Counted from the first letter of the stretch, positions 8,649-64,000 are shown. The stretch is DNA of 64,000 nt from an uncultured Bacteroidota bacterium (GCA_903910445.1 CAIVZR010000097.1:348-64347), one strand, 5' to 3'. The notes: a model not told the origin generated them from the sequence alone. Made by a program: numbers and translations.

Positions 8649-9947
8649 TTAAGAAATTCCTAATTTCTTTTTTACCGCCTCTGTTGTAATTGATTTTGGT
8701 CGTTCAAGAGGCAAGCCCAAAGCACGATCCCAAACCAAGGATGCTAAAACGCCTAGTGAGCGAGAAACACCAAACAATACGGTATAGAAATCCTCCTCAA
8801 CAAAACCATAATGCTGTAAAAGAGCTCCAGAGTGAGCATCAACATTTGGCCAAGGGTTTTTTACTTTACCTAAAGATTCAAGAATTGGTGGCACCGTTTC
8901 ATACACGTTCCAAACTGTATTCACCATATCATCGTCAGGGAAATAAGTTTTAGCAAATTCCATCTGAGCGGTGAAGCGTGGATCTGTTTTACGCAATACT
9001 GCATGACCGTATCCTGGTACAACTTGCCCTGCGGTAAGGGTATCTTGCACATATTTTGCAATTTGTTCCTTAGTAGGACGGGCAACACCTAATTGTTCGC
9101 ACATTTTCTTAAGCCAGCGAATTACTTCTTGATTGGCTAATCCGTGGAGTGGTCCAGCGAGTCCGTTCATTGCTGCAGCGAATGATAAATAAGGGTCGCT
9201 CAGCGCTGAACCTACGAGATGGGTTGTATGAGCAGAAACATTACCTCCTTCATGATCGGCATGGATGGTAAGGTAGAGGCGCATTAATTTTCTAAATTCC
9301 TCACCGTCATATCCAAGCATGTGGGCAAAATTTCCAGCCCAATCGAGTTTTGTATCCGGTTCAATATGTTTGCTGTCTTTATAAACCCGGCGATAGATAT
9401 AGGCAGCAATACGAGGTAATCGAGCGATGAGGTTCATTGCATCCTCGAATTGGTATGCCCAATAATCTTTCTTATTGATACCGTCGTGGTAAGCTTTTGC
9501 GAAAACGCTATCCGTTTGCATGGCCATGATACCAATGCTAAACTGAGTCATTGGATGGGTGGTGATTGGCAAGCTATCCAAGGTTTTGAATACATGAGCA
9601 GGTACTTCCCAACGAGCGGTCCATTGTTTATTTATTTCTCGGGTATCTTCAACGGTAGGCAATTCATCATAAAGCATGAGATAAAATAAACCTTCAGGGT
9701 AGGGAGTGCCATTTCCAGGCAATTTTTCACAAAGTTCGGGAATAGAGTATCCTCGGAAGCGAATTCCTTCGTTGGCATCGAGGGCTGAGGTTTCTGTAAC
9801 CAAGCCGGTGATTCCTTTCATACCGCCATAAACATCGTCTACGGTATATTCCCCAAACTTTTCGGTACCATGATTTTTAATGATATCCTTCACTACTGCT
9901 GCGTAAGCGGTAGCTTTTAGCGAAAACTTTTCTTTTAATTTATCCAT
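8649..9947 (-). CDS. gltA: Citrate synthase
   Basis: 432 aa with [47 protein letters not shown] and DPRF motifs of the dimeric (eukaryote-like) citrate synthase. Confidence 0.95.
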
Positions 9948-10255
9948 GACTTTTTCAGAGTGCTAAAATAGTGAATCAGCCATTTACGAAAAAATGATTT
10001 TCATTATATTTTGAAAGAAGTATTTTGGTTAGAAGGGGGTTGGGGGCAAAATTTAGAAAATGATCGTATCTGGATCTTCCTATAAGAGGTTTTAAGTTAC
10101 GATAACCAATTTGGTTTTTAATAAGTGCATTATGTGGTTGTAATTCTGCATTCGGTAATTAGATATTGTTAAAATGTTACTCGAATTTGATTGTATGGAC
10201 TTTTATTAGGTTTTTAAACAATCATAGTTGCAATATTAAATTCACATTTTCTAAG

Positions 10256-11464
10256 TTAATTCATAATCTGAATTTTTCGCAGTAGTATTCCGTTAATCGA
10301 AATAAGCTGAATTACATAGAAACCTGATTTTGAAATTTCTAATATAAACGAGTTGCAATATGGTGTTGAGCTAAAAATTATGGAGCCAGACATGTCAAAT
10401 ACTATTGCTTTCTCAATTATAGCATCTCCATTAATTTCAATTTTTCCAGTGGAAGGATTTGGGTAGAATTTATATTTTAAGGAACAGTCAGATCCTTCTC
10501 TAATGGCTGAAAGTGCCGCCCCATTTCTTACACAGATAATATAATTCTTATTGGTTTTTTCTAAATAAGTAGTAATGCCAAAATGAGTATCCAGATACCA
10601 GGCTTTACTTGTTTGATTCGGAAGTGTAGTCGATGACCAGTAATTTCCAATTTTCATACCAGTAAAAAAAGTTAGATTGACTGACGGGTTTATTTGTCCT
10701 TCATCATTTATTGATTGCAGCTCCTTAATGTCAGGTAAGCGCCAATCGGAATATCCGGCAAATGACAATCCTTCTGCATCAATGAGCGCTTGCTCCCAAG
10801 TAACAGAGTCAATAAGTGGTACTTGCTTCCACATCAGACCAGTAAGTAAATCGGTAACTGTACCATCGTTATTGTTTATAAAATGATTGGGAATGGTTGA
10901 GGGGTTTGAAATATCTCGTACTGCTCTAACATGAAATTTTTTTGTTCCGCCGGCACTAATTGTTTCTAATTTGGGGTGATTTCCGATACCTCCACCAGCA
11001 TTCGTGCACCATACTTTTGATGCATCATTTGCTTGTTTCTGGCTGCTCCACCAGTACTCTGCCAAGGAGGCGGTGAAATAGGTAGTGTTCAATGCAGGGT
11101 TCGCTTTACTATGATTAAGTATGCTAAAGAGCTCATGGCAATTTGGTAAACGCCAGTCGCTAAATCCGCCCAAAGTTAGTGTATCGCAATAGATTGTTGC
11201 ATTCTCAATCGTCATTTCCCCACCATCGGTTTTTTGCCACATCAATCCAGTTACAGTATCTGTAACGGTACCATTCCCGTTTAGAATAAAGAATGGCGGA
11301 TTGAAATTGTAATCGGCATCTTCTCCAAAGGTTGTAGTATAACTGGTCGTTTGACCAGTTCCTGGCAACCGCTTCATGGTTTTTAAAACAGGTTGAGCAG
11401 ATAATAAAACACATATTATTAGAGGAAATATGTTCAGGATGAACTTTGTTGTTTTATTTAACAT
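10256..11464 (-). CDS. Secreted protein with two DUF1566 (Lcl C-terminal-like) domains and a T9SS C-terminal sorting domain
   Basis: Signal peptide. GLMWQK...GGFSDWRLPNCHEL and GLMWKQ...AGYSDWRLPDIKEL are DUF1566 signatures. The tail KYKFYPNPSTGKIEI...GFYVIQL is a type-A T9SS CTD. Confidence 0.7.
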   Translation of the reverse strand: MLNKTTKFILNIFPLIICVLLSAQPVLKTMKRLPGTGQTTSYTTTFGEDADYNFNPPFFILNGNGTVTDTVTGLMWQKTDGGEMTIENATIYCDTLTLGGFSDWRLPNCHELFSILNHSKANPALNTTYFTASLAEYWWSSQKQANDASKVWCTNAGGGIGNHPKLETISAGGTKKFHVRAVRDISNPSTIPNHFINNNDGTVTDLLTGLMWKQVPLIDSVTWEQALIDAEGLSFAGYSDWRLPDIKELQSINDEGQINPSVNLTFFTGMKIGNYWSSTTLPNQTSKAWYLDTHFGITTYLEKTNKNYIICVRNGAALSAIREGSDCSLKYKFYPNPSTGKIEINGDAIIEKAIVFDMSGSIIFSSTPYCNSFILEISKSGFYVIQLISINGILLRKIQIMN

Positions 11465-11530
11465 ATTATCAATTTAAATAGTATTAAATACTATGCTTTA
11501 TATTTTATGGTTTTCACGATATTCAATTTT

Positions 11531-12085
11531 TTAGGTCAAGAATCTTTCAACGGCCCAAAATAGGGCAATCGATGAAATTATTATTGATAATGGTTTAACA
11601 AATTTTGTTTGATACCATACTTTTTTTTGAATCAAACGAGCGACAAAAAAGTAACAAAACGCAATTACAGTTAATTGTGCGGCTTCCACTCCAAGGTTAA
11701 ATGCGAGCAATGCGATGAGAAATTTGTTTTGAGGAATTCCTATTTCGTTAAGTGCAGATGCAAATCCTAAACCATGTAATAATCCAAATAGGAAGATGAA
11801 AGCCAATCGCCAAACTTGCAATTTAGTTTCTATTAAATTCTCCAATGCAACAAAAAAGATGGAGAGTGCAATAGTTCCTTCAATAACACTGGAATTAAAA
11901 TTCAAATACCCTAAAGTAGCTAAAGCCAAGGTGCTTGAATGCGCAATGGTAAAGATTGAACATTGTATTATAGCACTTTTGATTTTTGAATTAAAGAAAA
12001 ATAGAGAGATTATAAACAGCATATGATCGTAACCAAAAGGGATTACGTGTTCAAATCCTAGGCTGAAATAACTCGGAAATATCAT
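11531..12085 (-). CDS. HupE/UreJ-2 family membrane protein (putative Ni/Co-type metal permease)
   Basis: 184 aa with 5-6 TM segments, an N-terminal FEHVIPFGYDHMLF (HxxxGxDH-like) motif and a second LLHGLGFASAL motif. It starts 5 bp after the stop of the YHYH gene. Confidence 0.5.
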   Translation of the reverse strand: MIFPSYFSLGFEHVIPFGYDHMLFIISLFFFNSKIKSAIIQCSIFTIAHSSTLALATLGYLNFNSSVIEGTIALSIFFVALENLIETKLQVWRLAFIFLFGLLHGLGFASALNEIGIPQNKFLIALLAFNLGVEAAQLTVIAFCYFFVARLIQKKVWYQTKFVKPLSIIISSIALFWAVERFLT

Positions 12086-12090
12086 TTCAT

Positions 12091-13707
12091 TTAATTAATT
12101 ATTAGTTTGGCAGTATAGGTAGTGTTTAAAGTTTGAATAAGTATAATATATACCCCTTTTTGGAAATTACTGGTGTTTATCTTTTCAGTAAATGAGGGAG
12201 TATCGTAAACCACTTTGCCACTGCTTGTAAAAATTGAAACTTTTGTTATCTCATTTAATGCGATTTCATTACTAACATTAATAAATAGGTCCTTGCTATT
12301 TGGATTTGGATAAATTTGGATTTTGTTTTTACTGGTGTTATCGCTTTTTACTCCCTGAGTTAAAATACATGGCTTAAATCCATTATAATTTGAAGTCGTG
12401 GTGCCACCTGGACTGATAAAATTGAAGGTATAGACACCATTGCTAGTCCAGCTATAGCTCACCTTGTAAGTTTGCCCATTGAGAGTATATGAAAGAATAT
12501 ATCCATTGGTTCCATTAGCGATACAACTTGTTATCACGGCACCTTTTAATGGAGTACCTGCTGGCCTTATTGGATTAGCAGATGCTTGAGGAATTATTTG
12601 ATGCGTGGTGTCTTCAGTAATTTGCCCTACCATATTTCCAATCATATAAGGTGCAGTTGCAGTTCCATGATAATGGTAAACACCATTGGTTCCATAGTGT
12701 CCATGATTGGTATCAAGCGATTTCATTGATGAACCATCGGGTTCATAACTTCCATATACCGCATAGCCATCCAAGCCATAAGCAATAGGAAGTGTTTTGC
12801 TGGTAGTGCCATATAAATGTAAGGGTGCAGTGTGGTAGTGATAATCATCAGCACGACCGCAATGACCTCCCCAATTATCAAGTTGCCCGTCTAAATAAGC
12901 ATCGACTCCTGTATTTGTGTAAGGATTGAAAATTGCGATACCATTTACAGCAATTGCAATAGCTCCACGTGAAAAATGAGATGGATTAACAGGCACGGGA
13001 ACCGAAGCAATCACAGGGTTTAATGGAATACTCCACGCATTTGAACCAATATAACATTGTGGAATTGGCACTTGTTGTTGCCAGCCAGTAATTCCAGTCA
13101 TCATGGCATGAGTCGTTGGGATGCCTTGTGATTCAACATAGAAGTAGTTATTATCCCAATGTGTCACAATATTGGGTTTAAATGGAGTGAAAGCTGAGTC
13201 AACACTTATTGGATTACTTGTTGAGTTTATCCTTCTTATATAATTTGATGTGAAACTATAACCGACAGAAACTAAACCAACTATTAAGAAATAGTTTAGA
13301 TATTTTAGCTGAACTATTTTGAACCTAAGATAAATGATTGCCCAAATTACCAAAAGAATCACTGTAATTATTCCAGCTCTTAAAAAGTTGAAAGATGGTT
13401 TTGATATTGGGCTAGATACGGTCGGTGTTTCAATTTGAGCATTAAGTTGCTCAATAGCGGTATACCTTTTAATTATATAGGCTTGATCTTTTGCTGAGAA
13501 TGATGACAAAGGATAATGTATCGTTATGTTATCTGACAATTGAAGATAAACCTCATTGTGTTTTACCATCAATAATGAAGCCTTAACCTTTTGATGATTG
13601 TTCAGATCCCATTCGTGAAGTTTGAGTTGATGCATATCCAAGTTGTGGCTGAACATGGCAACATTCAAGAGTATGGCAACTATGGTACTTATAAATTTAC
13701 GATACAT
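12091..13707 (-). CDS. YHYH-motif domain protein with a T9SS C-terminal sorting domain
   Basis: Two YHYH boxes (GRADDYHYHTAPLHLY and NGVYHYHGT) separated by a His-rich stretch (DTNHGHYG). Hydrophobic segments lie at residues ~110-160. The C-terminus IQIYPNPNSKDLFI...YTAKLIIN is a T9SS CTD. Confidence 0.6.
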   Translation of the reverse strand: MYRKFISTIVAILLNVAMFSHNLDMHQLKLHEWDLNNHQKVKASLLMVKHNEVYLQLSDNITIHYPLSSFSAKDQAYIIKRYTAIEQLNAQIETPTVSSPISKPSFNFLRAGIITVILLVIWAIIYLRFKIVQLKYLNYFLIVGLVSVGYSFTSNYIRRINSTSNPISVDSAFTPFKPNIVTHWDNNYFYVESQGIPTTHAMMTGITGWQQQVPIPQCYIGSNAWSIPLNPVIASVPVPVNPSHFSRGAIAIAVNGIAIFNPYTNTGVDAYLDGQLDNWGGHCGRADDYHYHTAPLHLYGTTSKTLPIAYGLDGYAVYGSYEPDGSSMKSLDTNHGHYGTNGVYHYHGTATAPYMIGNMVGQITEDTTHQIIPQASANPIRPAGTPLKGAVITSCIANGTNGYILSYTLNGQTYKVSYSWTSNGVYTFNFISPGGTTTSNYNGFKPCILTQGVKSDNTSKNKIQIYPNPNSKDLFINVSNEIALNEITKVSIFTSSGKVVYDTPSFTEKINTSNFQKGVYIILIQTLNTTYTAKLIIN

Positions 13708-13789
13708 AATATCACTAATAGGTTATTTGTTTTAAATTATTTAGACGACATACTTGAAATTTTCACGCGATAATTAATTAATTTATTTA

Positions 13790-15505
13790 TTAACGGAGCA
13801 GTATAATCTTCTCACTTTGCATTCCAATTTTATCACCCGTTAGAATAAAATAATAGTTACCTGCAGGCAATGGCATTCCAAAGCCATTATTCCCATCCCA
13901 AATAATTTGAAATTTCCCTTCAGGAACGATACTCTCATCTATTAATTTTCGAACGGGCATTCCATTCTCATTATAAATGACAAGATTTATTAAATCAGCG
14001 GTCTTTAATAAAAACTCAATTTTAGTTTCTGTTTGAAATGGATTCGGATATATTAGCTCTTCAGAATAATTACTATTCCAAAGTACTGGAACGCCCGTCG
14101 ATGCAGAATCGTAGCAATTCTTAACACCAATAAAATAAGTTGCAGAAACATCCTTATTATGGCGTGTCCCAGTTTCATTAGCCGCTTTGTAAGCTCTTAC
14201 ATATTCAACTTTAACGCCTAAGGGGCTTACTGTTACTCTAAGGTGACCAGAGTTAGGAAGAATTTGTCCTTGAAAATACCCATATGCATTTGCCTGGGCC
14301 GCGCTCGCAAAATTAGGGTGACTAGGTTGAGGCGTTTCTTGATAAATCATACAGTCTTTTTCCTGCTTACCAAAGAAATGATCATGACCATGAAAGAAAA
14401 TATTCACTCTGTTTTCTGCTAATAAATCTTTAATAGGTTTGTACCACCCTGGCCGATTTGTTGCGAAACCACTGGTGCCATCGAGATTCTTGCCTCCCCA
14501 TTCATAACGGTCGGCAAACTCTACCCCACCACGACCTTCAGGGTCTCCTCCAATAATTTGATGAGAGAAAACAAACTTGAATTTCGCTTTGCTGTTTTCT
14601 AATGTAGATTTTAACCAATCATATTGAACCTTGCCCAAGGTCCAACGCCAGCCATTAAGGGAATCGGGTTTTACCTGAGTATACCAATAAGGGTCGAGTA
14701 CTATAAAGAGCGCATCACCCCAAGTCCAGGCATAATAATTTTGTCGCTGCCCAATATATTTATTGGTGGTTGTATCCCCTGTATAAAAGTTATCAGGAGC
14801 AGGATTTACAAAGTACTTCTTGCGTTCTATAGCATCCCAAACTGCAATATTATTTGCCGTTCCGTTATTATACCAGCCCGCTTCACCCTCGTGGTTGCCA
14901 AGTGCAATAAATACTGGAACTGAATGAGAAGCGGTTTCATAGGCTTTTCGTAAAAGGTTGCAACGGTATGGAATCGTATCATGAGGAACTACTTTGGAGG
15001 CATTCCATAACTTATCAGTCATTAAAAAATCACCAAGGTCTATCATGAAATCGGGATTATCTTCCAGCTGATTTCTTAAGCAGCGTTGATAGATTGCAGT
15101 ATCAGTTTGTTCGTCCATATGCGGGTCTGCTTGCACTACAAAAGTAAATGTGCTTCCGGCTGATCGTTGCGTTTGAAAAGTATATTCAGGCCTGCTGGTA
15201 TAATTAGTTAAGCCAGGCTTTCGATAGTTAACTCTATAAAAATATTTTGTATTAGCACTTAATCCAATAATATTTATTTCGGCAGATGCGCTATCACTAA
15301 ATCGCTGCCATGATGTTTGATTGGAATATGTTCCAGAACTTGTGCCATATTGCACTTGTACCTCAGCCGAATCTTTGAACATCACTTGGACCGTAATACT
15401 ATGATCAGTGGGGCGCCCAAGCATTTCTAAATGAAGGATTGTTTGACTTTGTATGCAGGTTTTTATTAGGAAGAGTAAGATCAGAAGGGTAAAGGGTTTT
15501 TTCAT
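13790..15505 (-). CDS. Purple-acid-phosphatase-like metallophosphoesterase, T9SS cargo (paralog 1)
   Basis: Signal peptide, then an Fn3-like PAP N-terminal domain (..NTKYFYRV). Metallophosphoesterase motifs follow in order: ADPH, GDF, GNHEGE, SHQ, GHDHFF. It has a C-terminal T9SS CTD (LIYPNPFQTETKIEF...YYFIL). Confidence 0.8.
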   Translation of the reverse strand: MKKPFTLLILLFLIKTCIQSQTILHLEMLGRPTDHSITVQVMFKDSAEVQVQYGTSSGTYSNQTSWQRFSDSASAEINIIGLSANTKYFYRVNYRKPGLTNYTSRPEYTFQTQRSAGSTFTFVVQADPHMDEQTDTAIYQRCLRNQLEDNPDFMIDLGDFLMTDKLWNASKVVPHDTIPYRCNLLRKAYETASHSVPVFIALGNHEGEAGWYNNGTANNIAVWDAIERKKYFVNPAPDNFYTGDTTTNKYIGQRQNYYAWTWGDALFIVLDPYWYTQVKPDSLNGWRWTLGKVQYDWLKSTLENSKAKFKFVFSHQIIGGDPEGRGGVEFADRYEWGGKNLDGTSGFATNRPGWYKPIKDLLAENRVNIFFHGHDHFFGKQEKDCMIYQETPQPSHPNFASAAQANAYGYFQGQILPNSGHLRVTVSPLGVKVEYVRAYKAANETGTRHNKDVSATYFIGVKNCYDSASTGVPVLWNSNYSEELIYPNPFQTETKIEFLLKTADLINLVIYNENGMPVRKLIDESIVPEGKFQIIWDGNNGFGMPLPAGNYYFILTGDKIGMQSEKIILLR

Positions 15506-15538
15506 CTATTCTGAGGTGTTGTATGGATTTAAATTTAA

Positions 15539-17227
15539 TTAATGATTGACAATTACTTTTCGAACAACATGGCTTTTTTCTGTGTCGACATGAATGGTGT
15601 ATATTCCATTAGGAATATCTTTTAAATTTATTACCTCTGAATGTGATGGCAATACAATTTGACCTAATGCGTTCACCAAATTTATTTGATGAATGATGAT
15701 GGATTCATCCATTTTAATTGAAATTTGATCATTGGCTGGGTTAGGGAATACCTGGAAGGCTTCATCTAGATTTGGATTTTCAATTCCTGAATTAGCGCAT
15801 TTGCCAATGGTGTATGAAAACCCAATTTCTCCATTTTTATGTATTCCACTAAGCGTATCGGCTGGTAAATAAGCTCTCACAAAATCTACTTTTATGCATG
15901 TAGGATTAACTGTAACTCTAATATGCCCAGTGCCAGGAATTGTATCAGCAGTGTATGCACCTGCATTAGCGAGCATTCCAATCTGGTATGTAGAGTCGGC
16001 AGCCATGGGGACTTCCTGGTAGGTTACACTATCAAGTATTTCATGGGCAAACAGATGATCATGGCCTTGAAAGAAAATATTTACATGGTTATCGATGAAG
16101 AGCTGATGAATTGTTTTGGGCCAGCCCGGTCGATAAGTGGCAAATTTGTTGGTATTGCCATCAAGGCCACCCCATTCGAATTGGGTAGCATTGGTAATTC
16201 CCCCTCGGCCTTGTCCACGAATATGATGTGCAAATACAAATTTATATTTTGATGTGCTGGATTCGAGTGTGTTTTTAAGCCAGGTATATTGAGGTAAACC
16301 TAGCGACCACGCCCATTTTTGAGGCTTACTGGAGGTGTCGCATTCGTCGCGATAAACGTCAAGAACAATAAATTGTGCATCTCCCCAGGTCCATGCAAAG
16401 TAGTTCTCTGGATTCCCAATACCATAGGGTTCATTATCAGTATTTCCACTGTAAAAGCCGTTCGGATAAGGATTTGGATAATAATATTTTCGCCATTGAG
16501 TTCCCCATACACAAAGGTTATTGGGAGGAGAAAAACTGTAGTAGTAGTCGTTCTCGCCTTCATGATTGCCAAGACAAATATAAAACGGTATAGAATGACA
16601 AACACTTCCTAAAAACGGCCTGTAGTCCTTATGAAGTGAATCAAGTTCTGCGGAGGTAATGGTGAACGGATTATGATCATCTCCAAAAATATCACCCAAA
16701 GAAAGCATGAAGTCGGGATTATCCTTTGCTTGATTATTTAATGTAACCTGATACATGCTTTTTACACCTTTAATATCGTATAAATGCTCATCCGCTTCAA
16801 TTGTGAAAGTGAAAGTACTTCCTTTAGATCTAGCAGTATGAAAAGAATATTCTGGAGAAGGGACGAATGTGCCCGTACTTGTTAGGTGGTAAAGTACTCT
16901 ATAAAAATATTTGGTGTCAGGAAGCAAGGGATGTAAATCAATCTCGTCAGGCTGGTTGGCTTTACCTGCATATTGTTTTGAAACCTGCGTGTAATTTCCC
17001 GAATTGATTCCAAATTCAAAATAGTAAATCATGTTTTGATCAAATACGATACTGGCAGTAATGGAGGTATCGGTAGGCCTACCCAAAATTATAGATTTAG
17101 TTTGCGAATAACTGCTTTCATAAAGAGTAAAAAGACTAATAATGATTAAAATTATTCGCAAAATGAATGTATGTTTGAGTTTTAGGCACTCATAGTTAGA
17201 TTCTAAGTCACACTTGTGATAATTCAT
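15539..17227 (-). CDS. Purple-acid-phosphatase-like metallophosphoesterase, T9SS cargo (paralog 2)
   Basis: Same architecture as its neighbour (..DTKYFYRV; ADEH, GDIFGDD, GNHEGE, AHH, GHDHLF), with a T9SS CTD (FQVFPNPANDQISIK...GIYTIHV). The proteins are roughly 35-40% identical by eye. Confidence 0.8.
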   Translation of the reverse strand: MNYHKCDLESNYECLKLKHTFILRIILIIISLFTLYESSYSQTKSIILGRPTDTSITASIVFDQNMIYYFEFGINSGNYTQVSKQYAGKANQPDEIDLHPLLPDTKYFYRVLYHLTSTGTFVPSPEYSFHTARSKGSTFTFTIEADEHLYDIKGVKSMYQVTLNNQAKDNPDFMLSLGDIFGDDHNPFTITSAELDSLHKDYRPFLGSVCHSIPFYICLGNHEGENDYYYSFSPPNNLCVWGTQWRKYYYPNPYPNGFYSGNTDNEPYGIGNPENYFAWTWGDAQFIVLDVYRDECDTSSKPQKWAWSLGLPQYTWLKNTLESSTSKYKFVFAHHIRGQGRGGITNATQFEWGGLDGNTNKFATYRPGWPKTIHQLFIDNHVNIFFQGHDHLFAHEILDSVTYQEVPMAADSTYQIGMLANAGAYTADTIPGTGHIRVTVNPTCIKVDFVRAYLPADTLSGIHKNGEIGFSYTIGKCANSGIENPNLDEAFQVFPNPANDQISIKMDESIIIHQINLVNALGQIVLPSHSEVINLKDIPNGIYTIHVDTEKSHVVRKVIVNH

Positions 17228-17250
17228 ATTTGCGGGCTGGTTATTCTGAT

Positions 17251-17754
17251 TTAATTATTTGATTTCTTTTTTGGTTGATTGTCGGGTCTGAAATAATCTC
17301 GTATTTCTAGCACGAGATGCTCAAATTTCTCTAATTGTTCAGGAGTACATATTGCTTTGAGCTGTTGGGCTTGTTCATATCTCAGCAATTCCATTTTGTA
17401 CTCATTTTGTGAAATCTCAAGCGCCAAATTCTTTATCAATGTTTCATCGGTATTTTTATTAAACATGGAGGCATTCATGGAATCCCGCTCTTGACGGATA
17501 ATAATAGCAAGTTGGCGTTCCTTTTCAAAAAAGAAGGCGCGAAGATTTTTTATTTGTTCGGCTTGTTTTTCCGAAAGTTGCAACTCCTCTTTTAGAACCC
17601 CTGAAACATCTCTATATTCTGCTGAGGGAAATAATTCAGGTTCATGCCGATGACCATTAAATTTCCAAATCAAAATCCCAAAAAAAAGCGCATTTATGAA
17701 AACCAATAAGTAGGTTACCCGTTTCCACATTTTCTTTTCTGTGAATATTTCCAT
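17251..17754 (-). CDS. Membrane-anchored periplasmic LTXXQ-motif (Spy/CpxP-like) protein
   Basis: One N-terminal TM helix. LSEKQAEQIKNLR and EQAQQLKAICTPEQLEKFE resemble LTXXQ periplasmic repeats. It is the third gene of an ECF sigma / anti-sigma module. Confidence 0.5.
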   Translation of the reverse strand: MEIFTEKKMWKRVTYLLVFINALFFGILIWKFNGHRHEPELFPSAEYRDVSGVLKEELQLSEKQAEQIKNLRAFFFEKERQLAIIIRQERDSMNASMFNKNTDETLIKNLALEISQNEYKMELLRYEQAQQLKAICTPEQLEKFEHLVLEIRDYFRPDNQPKKKSNN

Positions 17755-17756
17755 GA

Positions 17757-18110
17757 TTAGTAAGAAGCGGAACTTGGATTAATTAATAATTCTTTTGAAA
17801 TAAGTTTCAACTTATTATCATTAGCATTTGACTCCCTCGGGTTAGTTGCCAGGAAAAATGACAATAACAAAACATTTATTATCACCAAAGAAGCCATCGT
17901 ATAGATTAATTTTTGAGGATCGTTCTTAGCAATCCCATCTTTTTTGAAATTGTATAATTTTTTTTGAAGGCTATCATTCCATTCAATAGAGGGTTGAATA
18001 GTATCAAGTGATTCAAAGTTGCTAAGAATCTTATCTATATTTTGATTTAATTCGGATTCATTCATGGTATTAATTCTTTTTTTGACGATATTTAGTTTCA
18101 ATTCACGCAC
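17757..18110 (-). CDS. Putative anti-sigma factor (single-pass membrane protein)
   Basis: 117 aa with one central TM segment (LIYTMASLVIINVLLLSFFLA). It lies 3 bp downstream of the ECF sigma gene on the same strand, the canonical position. Confidence 0.45.
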   Translation of the reverse strand: MRELKLNIVKKRINTMNESELNQNIDKILSNFESLDTIQPSIEWNDSLQKKLYNFKKDGIAKNDPQKLIYTMASLVIINVLLLSFFLATNPRESNANDNKLKLISKELLINPSSASY

Positions 18111-18112
18111 TT

Positions 18113-18682
18113 TTAATCAGAGTTTGATAAAATTTGTTTTAAATTTTCCCTCATTTTCACCTTTGCTCTGTAAACAAGTGACTCAACACTTCGGGTACTG
18201 GTTTGCATTATTTCGGCTATTTCTTGATTATTATATCCTTCAATTCTACCCAAGGTAAAGGCGATTCGTTGGTTATCAGGGAGTTTGTTTAATGCGATGT
18301 GTAGTTCTCTGTTTCTTTCTTTGTTTAAGATGGTTTCATCCGATTTACTGCCACCTTCCAACCAATTAGATATTTCATCTAGATGCAATATTTTGGCAAT
18401 GGATGAAAATCGTTTTTTTCGACGTTGTCTTTTCAATTCATCGATGCTTTTTGTCACTGCAATTCTATATATCCAGGTAGAAAGCTTGGAATCTCCCCTG
18501 AAAAATTGAATGGATTGAAATACCTCGACAAAAACTTCTTGGGCAATATCCTGAGCCTCTTCTTTATTTAATAAAAAACGGTAACAGGTGTTGATTACTT
18601 GAGATTGGTAAAGTTTAACCAACGATTTGAATGCAGATTCAGAACCGGCCTTTAGATTGTTTATAAACTCCAAATCATCCAT
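18113..18682 (-). CDS. ECF-type RNA polymerase sigma-70 factor
   Basis: 189 aa. Region 2 (AQDIAQEVFVEVFQS...FRGDSKLSTWIYRIAVTKSID) and region 4 (LPDNQRIAFTL..IEGYNNQEIAEIMQTSTRSVESLVYRAKVKMRENL). Confidence 0.9.
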   Translation of the reverse strand: MDDLEFINNLKAGSESAFKSLVKLYQSQVINTCYRFLLNKEEAQDIAQEVFVEVFQSIQFFRGDSKLSTWIYRIAVTKSIDELKRQRRKKRFSSIAKILHLDEISNWLEGGSKSDETILNKERNRELHIALNKLPDNQRIAFTLGRIEGYNNQEIAEIMQTSTRSVESLVYRAKVKMRENLKQILSNSD

Positions 18683-18950
18683 TCGATACTAAAAGCAGTA
18701 ATTCATTGCAAAATATTTATTATTTAGTTATTTCAAGAGCAGGGGCTTTCTTGAGATGCTATTTACTTTTTTCTAATTTTAGAATGTTTTAAAACTATTT
18801 AATAGAATTATAGGAGTAGTTTTACAATCCTGTCTTATGAAATAATTAATGGGGTTCGACAAATAAAAGTGTCGATGGTTTAATTCCTTTTTAGTTTTTT
18901 TTTAACGCTAACTTTTTGGTCTGGATTGTTTTTCCGGATGCGGTGTTACG

Positions 18951-20828
18951 CTATTCTTCCTTTATTGCTAGTTTGTAGGTGTAGTGATTGTTTTCATTTT
19001 CTAATACTAGGAAATATAATCCAGCTGCAATATCATTAATTGAAATTGAATTTTGCTCGATGGGGCCTCTTTGTATCTCAGTTCCATTGGGCGACACTAA
19101 TCGATAATCGTATTTTTGTTCGATTGGCAGTGATGTGATTTGAAGCATTGATTGCCGTTTGCATGGATTGGGGTAAATTGAAGGTATTGGTTGATGGGCC
19201 AGTTTAATCCCTGCAATAGCATAGAACTCCAAGGCTCCAACATTCGTCATAGGGCTTTGTCTTGGCCGGTTGAGATAATCAGAGTTTAGGCTCGATAATG
19301 GTGCTAATGCGTTATAGGCTAAGGCAAGGTGTGCTTGGCTTGGTTGAATGGTTTGGAGTTGAAGGGTGTCGATAAGCAAATTCGTGCTTACTGGAAGGTT
19401 ATTTCTAATTAAATCGGTGGTGCTTAAATAGGAATGAGATTTTACCCAGATATTGTTGCTAAACTGAATGTCTTTCGGTCCAGGATGTTGAGGATGGAAG
19501 TTCATAATTATTGGAGTCATCGCAAGAAAAGCGGCAGTATCATAAGTGAAAATGTTATTCGAGATTCGAATATTTTGAAGGTATCCGTAATTGCTATTGG
19601 TGAGGATATTATAACTAGGATAATAAACTCTAACGAGCGCGCCTCCAATGGCCCCAGGTAATCCCATTACACCAATGATGGTATTGTTGTAAATCCACAC
19701 ATTCCGAATACAGTTGATTCCAATAGAGCCAGTAGCCCCCTCCCAAAATCCAATGGCCTGTCCAACGTTCTGGAAAATATTATTATAGATGAACATACTA
19801 TCTACATTTGAGAAAGTTTCATTTGGCAGAATGCATTTTGTTTGGCAGTTATTAAAAGAGGGCAGGCTACCAAAAACACAGGAGCCTTCATTAGCAATAA
19901 GAATGCCGCTCGATGCCCAAATTTTATCGGTATCGGCTGGACAATTACGCCAATATTGAGTTCCAATACCAGGGGTATTATATAAAATATTCTTGTAGAT
20001 ATAGAGCTTTGATGAATTGTCGTTATATAAATTTAAACCATTATCGTGCAACCTATTTTGTGATGCTTGGCAGCGAATGCTATTCTGAAAATTAAGCCCT
20101 TCACCCCGAGAGTAACCAACCTCACAATTGAACACCGAACCATCGGTACAATTGAAGAGCTTAAAACCACTGGGCCACTGACAAGGTGAGGTAAGAGACC
20201 CATTGCCTGGTCGGCTTGAGTAACGAAAAGCAGAATTGTTAATTAGGAGTGTGTCGACGCTGGTAAAGAGTGCGCAAAAGGAGCCAACGCTATCAACAGA
20301 AACATGATCAACCAGGATATTGTTTTGTCGTGGATAGGTTAAATTGTTTCTATTGCAATATATTCCAACCCCGGTGGAATATTTAAGTGTTATGTTTTTT
20401 ATAAAAATATGATCTCCAATTAAAACCAATAAGTTACTATTGGCGAATGTGTTTTGAGTACCGCCAATTACGACGTCGCCCAACCCTTCGATACTTACAT
20501 TTCGAAAGGTGTTGCCATTTTTCCAATTGCTAATGGTTTGTTGAAAACCGCTATTGGTGGCATAATAGCCGGGTTTCATCTTTATTAAACCATAGGCATT
20601 CCCGCCATTAACACCGGCCACTCCAAATGGCAATTTAAGTATGGCGGCGTTAAAAGTTTTTACAGGTAATGTGTTGGTTCCTGGATTGTTGTCATCGCCG
20701 TTAGGATCCATGTATACGGAATCGGTGATGGCATATTTGCCAGTATTGACAATAGGAGTGTTTACTACAAACTGGGCGTGTAGTGAAATCGAGAGTGCAA
20801 AAAGCACAATCAAGGTTTTAATTCTCAT
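18951..20828 (-). CDS. Secreted right-handed parallel beta-helix (pectate-lyase-fold) protein, T9SS cargo
   Basis: Many N-x-I/V beta-helix rungs (NNIFQNV, NNTIIGV, NNIFTYD, NNIWVKS) and a T9SS CTD (IYPNPCKRQSMLQI...GLYFLVL). The start was moved to the internal Met of MRIKTLIVLFALSISLHAQ (signal peptide). The upstream 16 codons of the longest ORF look non-coding. Confidence 0.65.
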   Translation of the reverse strand: MRIKTLIVLFALSISLHAQFVVNTPIVNTGKYAITDSVYMDPNGDDNNPGTNTLPVKTFNAAILKLPFGVAGVNGGNAYGLIKMKPGYYATNSGFQQTISNWKNGNTFRNVSIEGLGDVVIGGTQNTFANSNLLVLIGDHIFIKNITLKYSTGVGIYCNRNNLTYPRQNNILVDHVSVDSVGSFCALFTSVDTLLINNSAFRYSSRPGNGSLTSPCQWPSGFKLFNCTDGSVFNCEVGYSRGEGLNFQNSIRCQASQNRLHDNGLNLYNDNSSKLYIYKNILYNTPGIGTQYWRNCPADTDKIWASSGILIANEGSCVFGSLPSFNNCQTKCILPNETFSNVDSMFIYNNIFQNVGQAIGFWEGATGSIGINCIRNVWIYNNTIIGVMGLPGAIGGALVRVYYPSYNILTNSNYGYLQNIRISNNIFTYDTAAFLAMTPIIMNFHPQHPGPKDIQFSNNIWVKSHSYLSTTDLIRNNLPVSTNLLIDTLQLQTIQPSQAHLALAYNALAPLSSLNSDYLNRPRQSPMTNVGALEFYAIAGIKLAHQPIPSIYPNPCKRQSMLQITSLPIEQKYDYRLVSPNGTEIQRGPIEQNSISINDIAAGLYFLVLENENNHYTYKLAIKEE

Positions 20829-21019
20829 TTGGAAAGTAAAAATATAGAAAAGAATCAAATCTCCAAGTGGAAACATCGGGATAAAACTCTTTGATTGGGA
20901 GTGATATTAGTGATATACTTTGGAATCGCACTTAAATAGTCCTTCTTTAATTTCAAGAAGATCAATTGATATACCCTAAGATAATTAGAACAGAATCATG
21001 ACGACAGATTCTGATTCTT

Positions 21020-21415
21020 CTAATTTCTTTCTAAAGTTGCCGACCTTGAGTCCCATCCATCAAAATGTTCCAATTGAATAATTTTTCTGGATCTGGATTT
21101 TATCGACCAGTCAAAATTAAATTTGATGGCAATGCAAGAAATAGGGAATTCAACAGTGATTTTTTTTGAATCTTCATTGTAACTCCAAACTCCTTTGTCG
21201 AATGTGCCTTGATTATAGCCTCCCTTCACGGTGCCATCGTCGAGGAATTCCATGTTATAGCCAGTGAAATTCGCTGATACATCTTTTCCATTGTCATTAA
21301 AGGAGGTGATTTTCCAGGTACCCCTTTCGATAGTTCTTTCTGGTGCTTTTTTACATGAAACAAGCATAAGTGTTGCAATAACACTGTACATGAGTATTCT
21401 CGTTAATTTATTCAC
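21020..21415 (-). CDS. Small lipoprotein of unknown function
   Basis: Lipobox MLVSCKK. 131 aa, beta-rich. Confidence 0.5.
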   Translation of the reverse strand: MNKLTRILMYSVIATLMLVSCKKAPERTIERGTWKITSFNDNGKDVSANFTGYNMEFLDDGTVKGGYNQGTFDKGVWSYNEDSKKITVEFPISCIAIKFNFDWSIKSRSRKIIQLEHFDGWDSRSATLERN

Positions 21416-21595
21416 GGGTTGGTTTATTAATATTAAAATTTAACCAGCTTAACGCTGAAATGGTGAATATAGTATTTCATGCCAACTAACTGTTATTGAT
21501 TTTATTTTAAGAGACGATGGATTTAGTAGATTTAAGGTTGCAAAGGCTGGAGCCTGCTTCATATTTCGTGTCACCCTTCCGGTAAATTAGATTTG

Positions 21596-21628
21596 TAAAA
21601 ATATAAAAGGTCAGCAAAATTGCTGACC
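21596..21628 (-). terminator. Rho-independent terminator after the degenerate tRNA copy
   Basis: Minus-strand hairpin GGTCAGCAA-ttt-TGCTGACC followed by TTTTATATTTTT. Confidence 0.65.
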
Positions 21629-27604: not shown

Positions 27605-30307
27605 TTATCTAACTACCACTATTTTTTTAGTTTCTTTTATTCCATCATGATTTACAATCACGATATAATTTCCATTGGTTAAATTATTTACATAGAAGCT
27701 GTAATTGTTTTTACCACTTGTAGTGTTAATCTCTTCATTGATAACCAATTGACCTTGTAAATTATAAACGCTGATTGTTGCTTTATCGCTACGTTTACTG
27801 ATAAATGATAAGGTGGTGGTTGTTTTTGCTGGATTAGGATAAACATTCAATGTACCTTCAAATTTATCAGCTGCATTCATACCGGTACGAGCATAGGTTG
27901 TACTAACAAACATACCTCTACCGTGTGTGCCTATATAAAAGCGTGATCCAGGCCAGTTATTGTATTTGTATTGACGTAATTGGAATACTGGAACATTGGC
28001 CATACCTGAGTTTTCGAGAGTATATGCAGGGGTGGCTGAATTTAAATTTTTGCTCACGTACATACCATGCTCCGAAGCAACTACTAAAGTATTAGGATCA
28101 TCCCAAAGAACTTCGGCATCGTATAATGGAATCGTTGGTAAGTTGCCTTGAATTGAAGCGAAAGTAGGAGTAGCTGAATTTAAATTCGTACTATAATATA
28201 AGTAGTTACTATTTCCATAGTTACCTAAGGTAATCACTGCTCTATTAGAGTTAGTTTTACTGAATGAAACACCAGTTACGAATCGGCCAGGCGCGCTAAA
28301 TACTACTGAAACATTTACATTGCTCAAGGTAGCATTTGCCGAATCAAAAATACCTTTAGTAAGTACACTATCAACACGATAAACAACACCTGAATTGGTT
28401 CCAATTAATAAGCTATTTCCATCATTTGAAATATCTACGCAACTTCCGCTACCAGAAATTTGAGCAACACGATACCAGTTTGGCACTTTTGTAAGGTCGG
28501 CATAAATATTTTTCGCAATCCATGCAGTGCCTCTTGCCGCAACTAAGAACAATGAGTTAGAATCGGCCTTGGTTGATTCCCATAAGGTGAATGGGGTATT
28601 AAACTGACCTGAATCTTTGCAATAAGCAGACATACGATCGTTGTAAAATGTTTGATCGTATTTTTGCGTGAAGTCGTTATCGCGTGAAGTGAATTTTAGG
28701 TAAGATGATAATTCAGAATCGTAAGTTGAGAAGATGCCATATCCAGGTAGTTTTTGAGATAATTCTGCATGGAATCCGTCGCCACCTTTGGTTTTAACAC
28801 CACTCATTATGGTGTTTCCTAGGCCATCAACAACCCAGGTACCATTGTCTTGAGTACCACCAGCGGCTACCCAACCGTTACGAATATCATCGCGAACATA
28901 AGCAGCACACATCGCATAAAATTGAGTTACGCAGTAGCCATGATTAGAAGAAGCAAAATTCAATCCTTTATCATACGATTTGAAAACACCACCGTCATTA
29001 CCAATATACATGATTGCTGGATTTGCTTTTAAATCCCAAACGATGGCGTGATTATCCGCGTGTACATATTTATTAGAAGTAATGGAGTTGCTCCATACCG
29101 AAATAGGTTTGATACCACCTGTTGGTGTCCAATCCCATAAATCAATACCTCCAAAATAAGCGTGCTCAGGGTTGGAAGGGTCAACTGAAGTAACATTGTT
29201 CCACCATCCTTGGCCTTGAAGGTCGCTACCCAATACATCTACATAAGGAGTTGAGCCAGTCACGATGCGGGTCCAGTGTTGTCCTTTATCCTTGGATTGA
29301 ACGATTGAAAGTAAACGGCTATCAGTATTTCTTGAAGCCATCGCATAAATATAATTGTTGTCGCTAGGTGCAATCGCAATGCTTATACGGGCAGGTGTTC
29401 CACCCCATTCGCCTAAAGATCCTGTAGCAGGAGATAAACGGTTAAAGGTAGCACCACCATCAGTTGATACCACAACAGCGATTCCAATCACAGCAGCGAT
29501 GGTTTGACCATCAGGACTCATATCGATATCTACACAGTTACCAGTAGTAGCAGGAACTGTATTAGCTCTAGCCCAGGTAGTTCCACCATCAGTAGTTACA
29601 TAGAGTCCACTCGAGTTACAAGCATAAATTTTACCAGCAATATTTGGATCGGCTTTCATATCATTGGTATTTGCCCAGAATGATTTGCCTGATAAACTAG
29701 CATCAGTAGCCGGTAATAAATTAAAAGTAACACCACCATCGGTTGATTTCAATACCCCAGTTCCATCAAAACCAGAACTACCCGCGGTATTTCCACCACC
29801 ATTTCCAAATGATTCACCGGTACCAGCATAGATACTTCCATCGGCTCCCTGAGTTAAGGATCCAATATTTAAGCTTGACATGTTATCGTTTACACGAGTC
29901 CAAGAAGCACCAGCGGTTGTTGATTTCCAGATACCTCCAGAAACAGATCCAGCATAAATGATATTGCTGTTATTGCGATCGATAAGGATACTGCGGGTAC
30001 GACCTCCAACATTATTGGGGCCTACTTCAATCCAATCCATACCAGCATTGGTTTTTTTCAATGCAGCTTGGGCTTCAATTTCTTTATTGATACGAGCAAC
30101 TTCTGCTGCATCAACAGTCCCAGTAATTTGATTATTGAGAATTTGGTTTCTCCAGGTTACATAACCATCGGCGCTTTCACGTTCCATTTTCTCTTCCTGC
30201 GCTTCACCGAAACGCTCATCTTCTCTTTCAACGGCAGCAAAGGAAAGTGCTGTTAAAACCAATGCACTGATGGCCAAACTGAATATCGTATATTTTTTCA
30301 TCTTCAT
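27605..30307 (-). CDS. BNR/Asp-box repeat beta-propeller protein (Ycf48/xyloglucanase-like), T9SS cargo
   Basis: Signal peptide, a Glu-rich N-terminal segment, then repeated SxDxGxTW boxes (SVSGGIWKSTTAGASW, STDGGVTF, TTDGGTTW, STDGGATF, SKDKGQHW). The T9SS CTD is LNVYPNPAKTTTTLSF...GNYIVIV. It is 900 aa. Confidence 0.7.
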   Translation of the reverse strand: MKMKKYTIFSLAISALVLTALSFAAVEREDERFGEAQEEKMERESADGYVTWRNQILNNQITGTVDAAEVARINKEIEAQAALKKTNAGMDWIEVGPNNVGGRTRSILIDRNNSNIIYAGSVSGGIWKSTTAGASWTRVNDNMSSLNIGSLTQGADGSIYAGTGESFGNGGGNTAGSSGFDGTGVLKSTDGGVTFNLLPATDASLSGKSFWANTNDMKADPNIAGKIYACNSSGLYVTTDGGTTWARANTVPATTGNCVDIDMSPDGQTIAAVIGIAVVVSTDGGATFNRLSPATGSLGEWGGTPARISIAIAPSDNNYIYAMASRNTDSRLLSIVQSKDKGQHWTRIVTGSTPYVDVLGSDLQGQGWWNNVTSVDPSNPEHAYFGGIDLWDWTPTGGIKPISVWSNSITSNKYVHADNHAIVWDLKANPAIMYIGNDGGVFKSYDKGLNFASSNHGYCVTQFYAMCAAYVRDDIRNGWVAAGGTQDNGTWVVDGLGNTIMSGVKTKGGDGFHAELSQKLPGYGIFSTYDSELSSYLKFTSRDNDFTQKYDQTFYNDRMSAYCKDSGQFNTPFTLWESTKADSNSLFLVAARGTAWIAKNIYADLTKVPNWYRVAQISGSGSCVDISNDGNSLLIGTNSGVVYRVDSVLTKGIFDSANATLSNVNVSVVFSAPGRFVTGVSFSKTNSNRAVITLGNYGNSNYLYYSTNLNSATPTFASIQGNLPTIPLYDAEVLWDDPNTLVVASEHGMYVSKNLNSATPAYTLENSGMANVPVFQLRQYKYNNWPGSRFYIGTHGRGMFVSTTYARTGMNAADKFEGTLNVYPNPAKTTTTLSFISKRSDKATISVYNLQGQLVINEEINTTSGKNNYSFYVNNLTNGNYIVIVNHDGIKETKKIVVVR

Positions 30308-63800: not shown

Positions 63801-64000
63801 TGATGGAGTGCATAATCCAGCTACCACACAGCGATATTGATATCCTTGATTCCATGTTGCCACATTATTAACACCAAGTACAGCGGTATTCCAATTTGAA
63901 TAGGTTGGGTTTGACCCTGATATTGTTATGTCCGTCCAGGAGCCAGTTGCATTTACTTGCCATTGATAGGTAAGAAACGTACCCGTGGCCGCTGTGGTGT
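60855..64000 (-). CDS. Giant cell-surface adhesin-like protein with tandem Ig-like repeats and a T9SS C-terminal sorting domain (N-terminus beyond the window)
   Basis: Eight tandem ~76-aa repeats (LP.ANAG.D..IC.G.S..L.ASGG.SY.W.P..GLSN..I.NPIASP..TT.Y.V.V.D.NGC...D...V.VN). They are preceded by at least three ~50-aa YQWQVN..G..FT.I..G.NPSYS units. The T9SS CTD is ILQLFPNPTRGIVSIQ...GVYLLAI. The frame stays open to position 64000. Confidence 0.8.
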   Translation of the reverse strand, partial: TTAATGTFLTYQWQVNATGSWTDITISGSNPTYSNWNTAVLGVNNVATWNQGYQYRCVVAGLCTPSANSNSANLSVNTIPSFASHPANSTVCEGSSTQYQCVANGTNLNYQWQVNTGSGFTNIISSGTNPSYSNWNTYTLLLSGIGASNNYYQYRCIISNAGCNNATSNNANLFVNPKPLVNAGSNISICAGSSVNLAATVTSGTPPFTYSWTPTTGLSNPNIANPIASPTTNTTYVVKVTDFNGCINADDIVVNVNSLPTANAGSDITICKGTSTQLSASGGISYQWSPTTGLSNPNINNPLASPVNTTTYTVTVTDINGCKNIDDIKVIVNSLPIANAGSDISICKGSNTTLNASGGILYHWSPSTGLNNPNISNPIASPNITTNYIVAVENSNGCISSDSVIVTVNTLPIVNAGNDVSICSGSSTQLNASGGVSYLWTPSTGLSNPYISNPIASPVAITTYTVKVTDANGCSSNDDVQVKVNALPTAKAGFDATICLGGSTQLNASGGISYHWNPSSGLSNSNIANPLASPITTTIYSVTVTDSNGCTASDEVKITVNALPIANAGIDTAICKGNSLQLNATGGISYNWSPSVGLSNTTIPNPIASPTVTTNYIVTVGNISGCISKDTIRITVNPLPNAFAGNDISICQGSGAALNASGGTTYRWVPAIGLSNANISNPIASPAATTDYIVFVTNNFGCIKSDTLTVKVNPNPKPNAGLDAIICEGNSIILNASTAKTYSWSPIAGLSNNAIRNPIANPNITTNYILTVTDSNGCAGTDTVNITVLQNPLPKINGDISVCKNSSWKEYCIHNTSNNINWSISNGVILNGQGTNCIKVHWSDTGNNGVIKVSEHQWVSPYCIGFDSLKVNFNKGIAPNAAIVIAKANDLSTNILLCQFCNYKIYEWGYENKSSPLEITTCRTNTWCLYDKLDIANNYYWVKVGNDTGCLTKSYFNAPTGKTGVQGVQDKNILQLFPNPTRGIVSIQSLIEIEEIEVYNLLGSKMNCAIEWSSNSATVNLSDKASGVYLLAIKTKQGVINKKIVKE

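Follow-up and report, generated by a model that had tools for sequence, protein, structure and literature searches.

To our knowledge, very few extracytoplasmic function (ECF) sigma factors of Bacteroidota have a known promoter or regulon. We analyzed one such factor, and the genes that it appears to control, in a stretch of 64,000 nucleotides from an uncultured freshwater Bacteroidota bacterium (GCA_903910445.1 CAIVZR010000097.1:348-64347), called the window throughout. On its minus strand, an ECF sigma factor gene is followed by genes for a candidate anti-sigma factor and a putative periplasmic sensor (together, the triad), and then by five cargo genes. These encode two metallophosphoesterases (MPE1 and MPE2), a YHYH-domain protein, a HupE/UreJ_2-family inner-membrane protein (HupE) and an Lcl_C (DUF1566) protein, most of them predicted substrates of the type IX secretion system (T9SS). 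Bacteroidota have the most ECF sigma factors per genome (PMC7826278), and the systems with which this locus can be compared were described in other settings. In CnrYXH of Cupriavidus metallidurans (ECF291), the Ni/Co-responsive sigma factor CnrH is governed by a short single-pass anti-sigma factor, CnrY, and a membrane-anchored periplasmic sensor, CnrX (PMC6851896). Our locus shares this three-protein logic, together with a very short single-pass anti-sigma candidate (~45-55 cytoplasmic residues and a short periplasmic tail) and an N-terminally anchored sensor of family PF13801. It differs in gene order (sigma, anti-sigma, sensor, as opposed to cnrY-X-H), in its output (T9SS-secreted enzymes and a permease, where Cnr produces an RND efflux pump) and in the position of the ECF-type promoter, which lies after the sigma gene and not before the operon.

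Groups ECF281 and ECF290 come closer in arrangement: an anti-sigma gene at +1 and a PF13801 ‘heavy-metal resistance protein’ at +2, with a predicted role in heavy-metal stress (PMC7826278). In a comparison by gene neighbourhood, the gene order and sensor family are identical to ours; the anti-sigma factors of those groups, however, are zinc-finger (ECF281) or RskA (ECF290) proteins, and ours is neither. No T9SS cargo regulon has been described for them. An uncharacterized Azospirillum operon of RpoE8, a hypothetical protein and a periplasmic sensor for heavy metals is similar (PMC12826043). CpxP, Spy and ZraP of Enterobacteria belong to the same superfamily as the sensor and act in the periplasm, where envelope-stress systems use them as inhibitors, sensors or chaperones. 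They are soluble, however, and their partners are two-component systems (CpxAR, BaeSR, ZraSR), whereas the sensor here is membrane-anchored and accompanies an ECF sigma/anti-sigma pair. CpxP, Spy and ZraP are induced by Cu and Zn. The architecture of the triad is of a known kind; a first-pass annotation of the window had taken the whole module to be undescribed, which the ECF281/ECF290 order contradicts for the triad and which stands for the cargo combination, as limited literature searches found no description of these families together. What appears to be undescribed are the anti-sigma family, the promoter and its placement, and the T9SS-cargo regulon.

The cluster, as predicted from its promoters, is a regulon of about three transcription units and not the single eight-gene operon originally proposed, because two internal ECF-type promoter sites precede the anti-sigma and YHYH genes. 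The promoter motif was derived from related loci. Raw bipartite k-mer counts, with which the motif hunt began, were swamped by AT-rich words; ranking by composition-corrected p-value showed the octamer TCGTCTAA to be enriched upstream of sigma genes (nominal p ~1e-9). A -10 element with CGTC is typical of ECF promoters. Fifty-one sites anchored on CGTCTAA alone then revealed a -35 block, GCCAGAA, at a fixed distance, with 33-42 of the 51 matching at each position. Since the sites were chosen by their -10 word only, this block is independent evidence of a real bipartite element, whose consensus is A[GA][TC]GCCAGAA-N13-[GA]TCGTCTAA. The -35 block varies by lineage (GCCAGAA, GCGTGAA, GCCTGAT), and the window has the form GCGTGAA.

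A position weight matrix (PWM) was built from these 51 sites, all from other organisms, the window’s own organism having been excluded, and used to scan the full window on both strands. Just two matches exceeded 10 bits, P2 at 22.0 and P1 at 21.4, where shuffled sequence reached a maximum of 11.6 bits. Both lie on the coding strand and in intergenic gaps of the cluster: P1 is inside the 47-nt gap from the sigma stop codon to the anti-sigma ATG, and P2 is inside the 82-nt gap between MPE2 and YHYH, 33 nt before the YHYH ATG, and includes an exact TCGTCTAA. The ECF promoter sites proposed by the first-pass annotation, upstream of the sigma gene (18682) and of MPE1 (17227), must be rejected, as the best PWM scores in the window at these places were 1.0 and -3.9 bits. 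A generic sigma-70 promoter scan was set aside, its 37 promoter-like matches standing at chance level (36 expected).

The distribution of the motif in related loci follows the same pattern. Across 1.73 Mb of such loci, 130 matches scored at least 14 bits. For about 85, the gene lying at most 200 nt downstream belonged to the triad or the cargo (anti-sigma ~50, YHYH 13, MPE1 11, sigma 10, CueO-like oxidase 5), and 21, most of them from the ends of contigs or from regions of the triad or cargo, had no called same-strand gene within 200 nt; just ~2 of the 130 preceded any of 742 unrelated genes. The commonest position by far was before the anti-sigma gene, where the motif occurred in 51 of 61 triads of other organisms. 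It was found upstream of sigma in only 10 of 51 and directly after the sensor gene in 23, and in two loci (L031 and L032) one site serves a divergently transcribed MPE1-MPE2 pair. The sigma gene is thus accompanied, at its own locus and at its likely target genes, by a bipartite promoter with a CGT-containing -10, from which we infer that the sigma factor recognizes it. The design is unusual in that the ECF-type promoter usually comes after the sigma gene and before the anti-sigma gene.

We then asked what lies downstream of the triad in relatives. For this triad-side comparison, metagenome contigs were picked only through an alignment of sensor orthologues, and 60 extended by 400 bp or more beyond the sensor gene. 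The cargo set was defined as PhoD/PAP-like phosphoesterases (PAP, purple acid phosphatase), YHYH, Lcl_C with or without an FGE-like domain, CueO-like oxidase, MbnP and a thioredoxin-like protein. In 52 of the 60 contigs the next same-strand gene after the sensor belonged to one of these families: MPE1 (14), YHYH (11), Lcl_C+FGE (9), CueO-like oxidase (7), MPE2 (6), Lcl_C (3), MbnP (1) and thioredoxin-like (1). Because the association is kept while gene order shuffles, the triad and the cargo are likely to be functionally linked. The neighbourhood comparison across Bacteroidota that had been suggested for this locus therefore came out in favour of linkage, and, with the promoter motif, it supports the earlier proposal that the ECF factor controls the downstream genes.

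We regard this regulatory wiring as well supported computationally and hold it with good confidence. We are less sure of its meaning, and consider it probable, with some reserve, that the cluster is made up of a dedicated ECF signalling module and the local regulon of secreted metalloenzymes that it controls, in answer to a periplasmic metal cue. In the circuit that we propose, unit 1 would consist of the sigma gene alone, expressed from its own non-ECF promoter. The single-pass anti-sigma factor would hold the sigma factor at the membrane, and the sensor, of the CpxP/Spy/ZraP/CnrX family, would read the conserved periplasmic tail of the anti-sigma factor, as in the CnrYXH logic. A periplasmic cue, most likely metal status and possibly copper, would free the sigma factor to fire the GCCAGAA-N13-TCGTCTAA promoters P1 and P2. 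P1 would transcribe unit 2 (anti-sigma, sensor, MPE1 and MPE2) and P2 unit 3 (YHYH, HupE and Lcl_C), with possible read-through between units, since there are no terminators between the genes. From an ECF-type promoter in this position, behind the sigma gene, one would predict negative feedback by way of induced anti-sigma factor and sensor, and no positive autoregulation. The output would be T9SS-exported PhoD/PAP-like phosphoesterases, a His-rich YHYH protein (a predicted metal-dependent hydrolase), a lectin-like Lcl_C protein and a HupE/UreJ-type cation permease. The sequences themselves show the genes with their families, the linkage kept among relatives and the exclusive placement of the motif; its reading by this sigma factor, the anti-sigma role of the small protein, the control of that protein by the sensor, the identity of the signal and the role of the cargo are the parts of this circuit that we infer. 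The analysis supplies a defined motif, its two sites in the window and a predicted regulon, which are directly testable, and a handle on the regulator would offer a route to the inducing signal and to the function of the cargo block.

Coordinates and supporting matches of the genes and predicted promoters are collected here.
Genes and predicted promoters of the ECF cluster, in order of transcription
Feature	Coordinates	Strand	Evidence
Sigma: ECF (group IV) sigma-70 factor, 189 aa	18113-18682	-	Sigma70_r2 2.4e-16, Sigma70_r4_2 2.3e-14, Sigma70_ECF 3.2e-8
P1: predicted ECF-dependent promoter AGTGCGTGAAttgaaactaaataTCGTCAAA	18081-18111	-	PWM 21.4 bits
Candidate anti-sigma factor, 102 aa	17757-18065 (GTG-start ORF 17757-18110)	-	Position and topology only
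Putative sensor: LTXXQ-like membrane-anchored periplasmic protein, 167 aa	17251-17754	-	Metal_resist, LTXXQ
MPE1: T9SS-tailed secreted PhoD/PAP-like metallophosphoesterase, 562 aa	15539-17227	-	Metallophos 2.1e-7, Por_Secre_tail 5.5e-11
MPE2: MPE1 paralogue, 571 aa	13790-15505	-	Metallophos 8.9e-10, FlgD_ig 29.4 bits
P2: predicted ECF-dependent promoter ATCGCGTGAAaatttcaagtatgTCGTCTAA	13741-13771	-	PWM 22.0 bits
YHYH-domain protein, 538 aa	12091-13707	-	YHYH 8.6e-12, Por_Secre_tail 1.4e-11
HupE: HupE/UreJ_2-family inner-membrane protein, 184 aa	11531-12085	-	PF13795 (HupE_UreJ_2) 3.9e-43
Lcl_C: two-domain Lcl_C (DUF1566) protein with T9SS sorting domain, 402 aa	10256-11464	-	Lcl_C 1e-55, two stretches

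All eight open reading frames (ORFs) were recovered on the minus strand within 10256-18682, at the coordinates that the first-pass annotation had given, with intergenic gaps of 2-82 bp, and Pfam and NCBIfam confirmed seven of its eight family assignments, including sigma, LTXXQ and the cargo; the small ORF after sigma matches no family. Its observation that no terminators intervene also held: a terminator scan of 9800-19200 found no terminator-like site on the minus strand, and the folding of each intergenic gap in the cluster was no better than that of shuffled sequence. Window positions 10323-21628 are collinear, at 97.9% identity, with an independent assembly, L006, so the arrangement is not an artefact.

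The proteins of the triad are consistent with their proposed roles to different degrees. The sigma factor scores 98.5 bits against TIGR02937 (cutoff 42.9) and holds only the sigma2 and sigma4 domains (Sigma70_r2 at residues 21-88, Sigma70_r4_2 at 126-177), the composition of ECF group IV factors, whose usual length of ~170-200 aa it also has. The next gene was first called as a 117-aa ORF with a GTG start; it almost certainly encodes a protein of 102 aa, with its predicted start at the ATG at 18065. We prefer this start because a separate gene call in L006 also gives 102 aa, because its relatives are ~100 aa long, and because the extra 5’ part of the longer ORF holds the promoter-like site. 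In a representative library of 1.84 billion sequences, the family comprises 98 cluster representatives, two of which are the window’s own protein and one unaligned 4220-aa protein; nearly all of the ~96 relatives that are left have about 100 aa. The predicted product would cross the membrane once, with ~55 residues in the cytoplasm and a short tail in the periplasm that ends in a conserved (I/L)SKELLI motif (ISKELLIN in the window); it contains no Cys and no His. Its gene stands at +1 after sigma in all triads, and this position and topology alone point to an anti-sigma factor.

Assignment of the 167-aa protein to the LTXXQ families was borne out, both Pfam models scoring above their gathering cutoffs (Metal_resist PF13801, 34.8 against 29.2 bits; LTXXQ PF07813, 27.2 against 24.3 bits). 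Two LTXXQ-like motifs, L(S/T)xxQ and C(T)PEQ, are conserved in the orthologue alignment. Residues D91, S92, M93, N94, M97, E118, M121, E122, R125 and Q128 are invariant among the 11-13 aligned orthologues, and C136 nearly so. A Met/Cys Cu(I) site built from these residues (DSMN..M, ME, C) was entertained and remains speculation, as its Met residues are not kept in the paralogue of the sensor that is linked to MbnP and MbnH. The orthologue profile weakly matches Spy (3oeo) and ZraP (3lay) in the PDB; apart from T9SS sorting domains, sequence searches of the PDB with MPE1, YHYH, the sensor and the anti-sigma candidate gave no informative relatives.

The sensor family, HupE and the copper-linked neighbours found in relatives together favour periplasmic metal status, most likely copper. 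Cluster variants add a T9SS-tailed CueO-like multicopper oxidase (1e-104) and ResA/TlpA-like thiol-disulfide oxidoreductases, which lie directly upstream of the triad in relatives. A paralogous triad of a sigma factor, an 84-aa and a 149-aa protein adjoins MbnP-MbnH (L004 2138-5129; also L013, L029, L045, L058, L066 and L117), and hhalign identifies the 149-aa protein as a homologue of the sensor (probability 94.5%). MbnP is a copper-binding protein and MbnH its MauG-like di-haem maturase. This paralogous triad often shares a supercluster with the triad studied here, and CGTCTAA-type sites precede its genes.

Several observations weigh against the proposed circuit or its copper signal. The window itself has none of the copper genes, neither oxidase nor MbnPH. 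The CnrX ligands H42, H46, E63, H119 and M123 have no conserved counterparts and no His is invariant among the aligned sensor orthologues, so the Ni/Co site of CnrX is missing and the protein is not a CnrX-type Ni/Co sensor. It may just as well sense protein folding in the manner of Spy/CpxP, or it may be a Spy-like chaperone and not a metal sensor. No known anti-sigma family fits the 102-aa protein, which matches no Pfam, NCBIfam or PDB family; searches with its profile found no match to CnrY, to the PDB (CnrY-CnrH included) or to Pfam, so the earlier anti-sigma call keeps its single-pass topology and position and loses homology to a known family. Recognition of the motif by the sigma factor was likewise deduced from co-location alone. 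We see no reason for PhoD-like phosphatases to respond to a metal (copper) cue, and an inner-membrane permease alone cannot metallate exported enzymes unless it is an exporter.

The same side of the balance holds the distribution of the cargo. Among 79 other species loci chosen through MPE1 (L011-L089), only ~12 contain the sensor gene or triad, and most MPE1-MPE2-YHYH blocks elsewhere have neither triad nor motif nearby. The cargo block is thus more widely spread than the triad, and ECF control is one regulatory option among several. A His_kinase/LytTR pair stands beside an MPE/YHYH/Lcl_C block, sometimes in place of the ECF triad, in L049, L068, L072, L078, L083, L116, L152 and L158. It appears that the cargo set has been wired to different sensors in different lineages.

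We weighed three other explanations of the cluster. In the first, the cluster is a regulon for scavenging phosphorus (and sulfur): the phosphoesterases are secreted to mine organic esters, and the ECF system senses a consequence of nutrient limitation and not metal. Fresh water is often phosphorus-limited, and all relatives come from freshwater metagenomes; the two PhoD/PAP-like enzymes have complete catalytic motifs, and some variants add T9SS-tagged sulfatases and arylsulfotransferases. The sensor, however, is from a metal and envelope-stress family and not a Pho-type system, the neighbourhoods showed neither PhoB/R nor Pst genes, and the linked CueO-like oxidase, MbnPH and HupE are unrelated to phosphorus. 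We consider scavenging unlikely as the organizing principle, though it deserves to be taken seriously.

Somewhat more doubtful is an envelope-stress loop of the Cpx/Spy kind, in which unfolded or unmetallated T9SS cargo titrates the LTXXQ chaperone or sensor, the ECF factor tunes anti-sigma, chaperone and cargo, and metal is not the primary signal. It would account for Spy and ZraP being the closest solved relatives of the sensor by profile, for the conservation of the two LTXXQ-like motifs and not of metal-ligand His, for the negative-feedback design in which the strongest and most conserved promoter drives anti-sigma and sensor, and for an output that is nearly all T9SS cargo. One would not expect a general stress loop, however, to remain linked to one particular cargo set while gene order shuffles, and the paralogous triad has a specific link to MbnP and MbnH, which are copper proteins. 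That the triad merely adjoins the cargo block and has its real regulon elsewhere, as the many triad-less cargo blocks of other species might suggest, is very improbable given that a cargo family comes next in 52 of 60 contigs picked without bias and that the shared motif stands before anti-sigma and cargo genes and almost nothing else.

We therefore retain the metal-responsive module as the preferred reading. A more novel reading, which we offer as a long shot, would make the module an ECF circuit of a class so far uncharacterized in Bacteroidota and would have the CpxP-family sensor, docked to a family-less mini anti-sigma factor, monitor the metallation or folding of T9SS cargo in the periplasm; the non-autoregulated sigma factor would switch on its own inhibitors together with a kit of exported metalloenzymes (PhoD-like esterases, YHYH and Lcl_C), HupE would supply periplasmic metal, and the N-terminal His and hairpin of YHYH would pass metal to or from HupE.

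The cargo proteins were examined for features that bear on their function. MPE1 and MPE2 are paralogues (40% identity), and both score above the Metallophos cutoff. In MPE1 the five motifs of calcineurin-like metallophosphoesterases (DxH, GD, GNHE, HH and GHDH) are all present and invariant in 24 orthologues, on the predicted fold of these enzymes. The best structural matches of its model (mean predicted local distance difference test score, pLDDT, 68) are Bacillus subtilis PhoD (2yeq, 1.9e-17), followed by wheat purple acid phytase, the matches to PhoD and to plant purple acid phosphatases and phytases ranging from 1.9e-17 to ~3e-16. The likeness extends to an N-terminal beta-sandwich joined to the metallophosphatase domain. 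The differences are an identity of only 14-16%, a motif I of the form DxH (ADEH), a PhoD Pfam score below threshold and an added T9SS sorting domain. Purple acid phosphatases have seven ligands, in the motifs DxG, GDxxY, GNH(D/E), VxxH and GHxH, and the chromophoric Tyr of motif II is what makes them purple. In MPE1 this motif reads GDIFG, without the Tyr of GDxxY, while GNHE, AHH and GHDH are present; Pur_ac_phosph_N was below cutoff. Because this Tyr is missing, MPE1 is PhoD/PAP-like but not a purple acid phosphatase, and the earlier label is right about the fold of the two phosphoesterases but not about the defining ligand, which they lack.

Four of the five cargo genes had been credited with T9SS tails. 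The C-terminal sorting domain exceeds the curated cutoff in MPE1 (43 bits), in YHYH (44.9) and, by TIGR04183 with its cutoff of 23, in Lcl_C (25.7), and it is borderline in MPE2 (TIGR04183 22.8 against 23). By this domain (PF18962 / TIGR04183) and an N-terminal signal peptide they classify as type A cargo of the T9SS, MPE2 with the reserve just given. The tail of the MPE1 model matches the solved T9SS substrate C-terminal domain 8glk_D with a target-normalised TM-score of 0.80.

From its N-terminus, the YHYH protein has a signal peptide, followed by an invariant His and an SHD1-like domain, then two hydrophobic helices, and after these the YHYH domain and the T9SS sorting domain; this architecture and many invariant His columns hold in 29 orthologues. 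H21 is invariant in all 29 and comes directly after a small residue where signal peptidase is predicted to cut, so that His may be the first residue of the mature protein, as it is in copper proteins with a histidine brace. The YHYH family was predicted to be a Zn-dependent hydrolase in a comparative study by the Aravind group (PMC7824862). The structure model of the YHYH protein was unusable as a whole (mean pLDDT 60, below 50 in the core), and we took from it only the helices at 108-128 and 134-162; the SHD1-like beta domain reached pLDDT 80-90. The second helix resembles an internal signal peptide (K/R-rich, hydrophobic, YSF). The two helices together look like a membrane hairpin or an internal signal peptide, and such a hairpin and a T9SS tail give contradictory signals of topology.

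HupE adjoins YHYH with a 5-nt gap, and the two are also adjacent in L004, L005 and L008. It belongs to PF13795, a sister family of PF04955, the HupE/UreJ family that has been studied. HupE may be a permease for divalent cations, and its family name would make it a metal importer. The neighbourhoods of HupE in two distant taxa were uninformative, one holding AraC/TonB/HmuY and the other DUF4331/TPR. In many loci the Lcl_C orthologues carry an added FGE-sulfatase-fold domain. The idea that these Lcl_C+FGE proteins are copper-dependent formylglycine-generating enzymes was dropped when a rough regular expression for the catalytic Cys pair matched 0 of 20; their best NCBIfam matches are GldK, PvdO and GldJ.

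The cargo block is a widespread, conserved set of T9SS-secreted metalloenzymes in freshwater Bacteroidota, which includes the functionally unknown YHYH family. MPE1 has thousands of metagenome homologues at 60-70% identity, and its relatives occur in 314 GTDB species, all metagenome-assembled genomes of Bacteroidota and mostly from fresh water. Among 80 fetched loci with BLAST-labelled ORFs, the core block runs MPE1, MPE2, YHYH, an optional 408-aa T9SS protein, Lcl_C and then HupE, the Lcl_C gene often being fused to an FGE-sulfatase-fold domain. MPE2 follows MPE1 in 35 of the 37 species loci with enough sequence. Some variants carry T9SS-tagged arylsulfotransferases (PF05935) as well as sulfatases that resemble arylsulfatases and have retained the formylglycine motif CSPTR (L090 16192-17880; L103 7628-9292; L144 10116-11609; L029 5458-7047). 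With the CueO/laccase-like oxidase, these enzymes hint at aryl ester or phenolic chemistry in some lineages.

Three large T9SS-tailed proteins are encoded elsewhere on the minus strand of the window: a 641-aa protein without any further domain (18951-20876), a Sortilin/BNR-like protein of 900 aa (27605-30307) and a PKD/Ig-rich protein of 1002 aa (60855-63863). Because no ECF-type motif was found upstream of any of the three, we place them outside the regulon.

Comparison of assemblies turned up further differences around the cluster. The L006 strain has an extra 489-aa ORF, with no Pfam match, between the Lcl_C and citrate synthase genes; it is missing from the window (L006 11569-13038, against window 10046-10323), and identity between the two falls from 98% to 91% beyond that point. 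The GTDB representative contig of the organism, L010 (CAILCX010000126), is labelled ‘uncultured Methylobacter sp.’ and matches the window only over 12305-17284, at 99.9% identity. Upstream it continues into 9.9 kb of unrelated DNA (L010 1-9943), whose GC is a little higher; the junction falls within the 3’ end of the sensor gene. Because both L006 and the synteny of other loci back the window version, the L010 contig or bin is probably chimeric, which would explain its odd taxonomic label.

Two features of other genes were seen in passing. On the minus strand of the window at 501-1907, a B12-binding domain is fused in one ORF to a MeaB-type GTPase, the methylmalonyl-CoA mutase chaperone. In L001-L003, from a Saprospiraceae genome, four tandem copies of a 93-aa GIY-YIG gene, spaced by ~560 bp, lie at ~17700-19660 beside an unrelated HupE_UreJ_2 locus.

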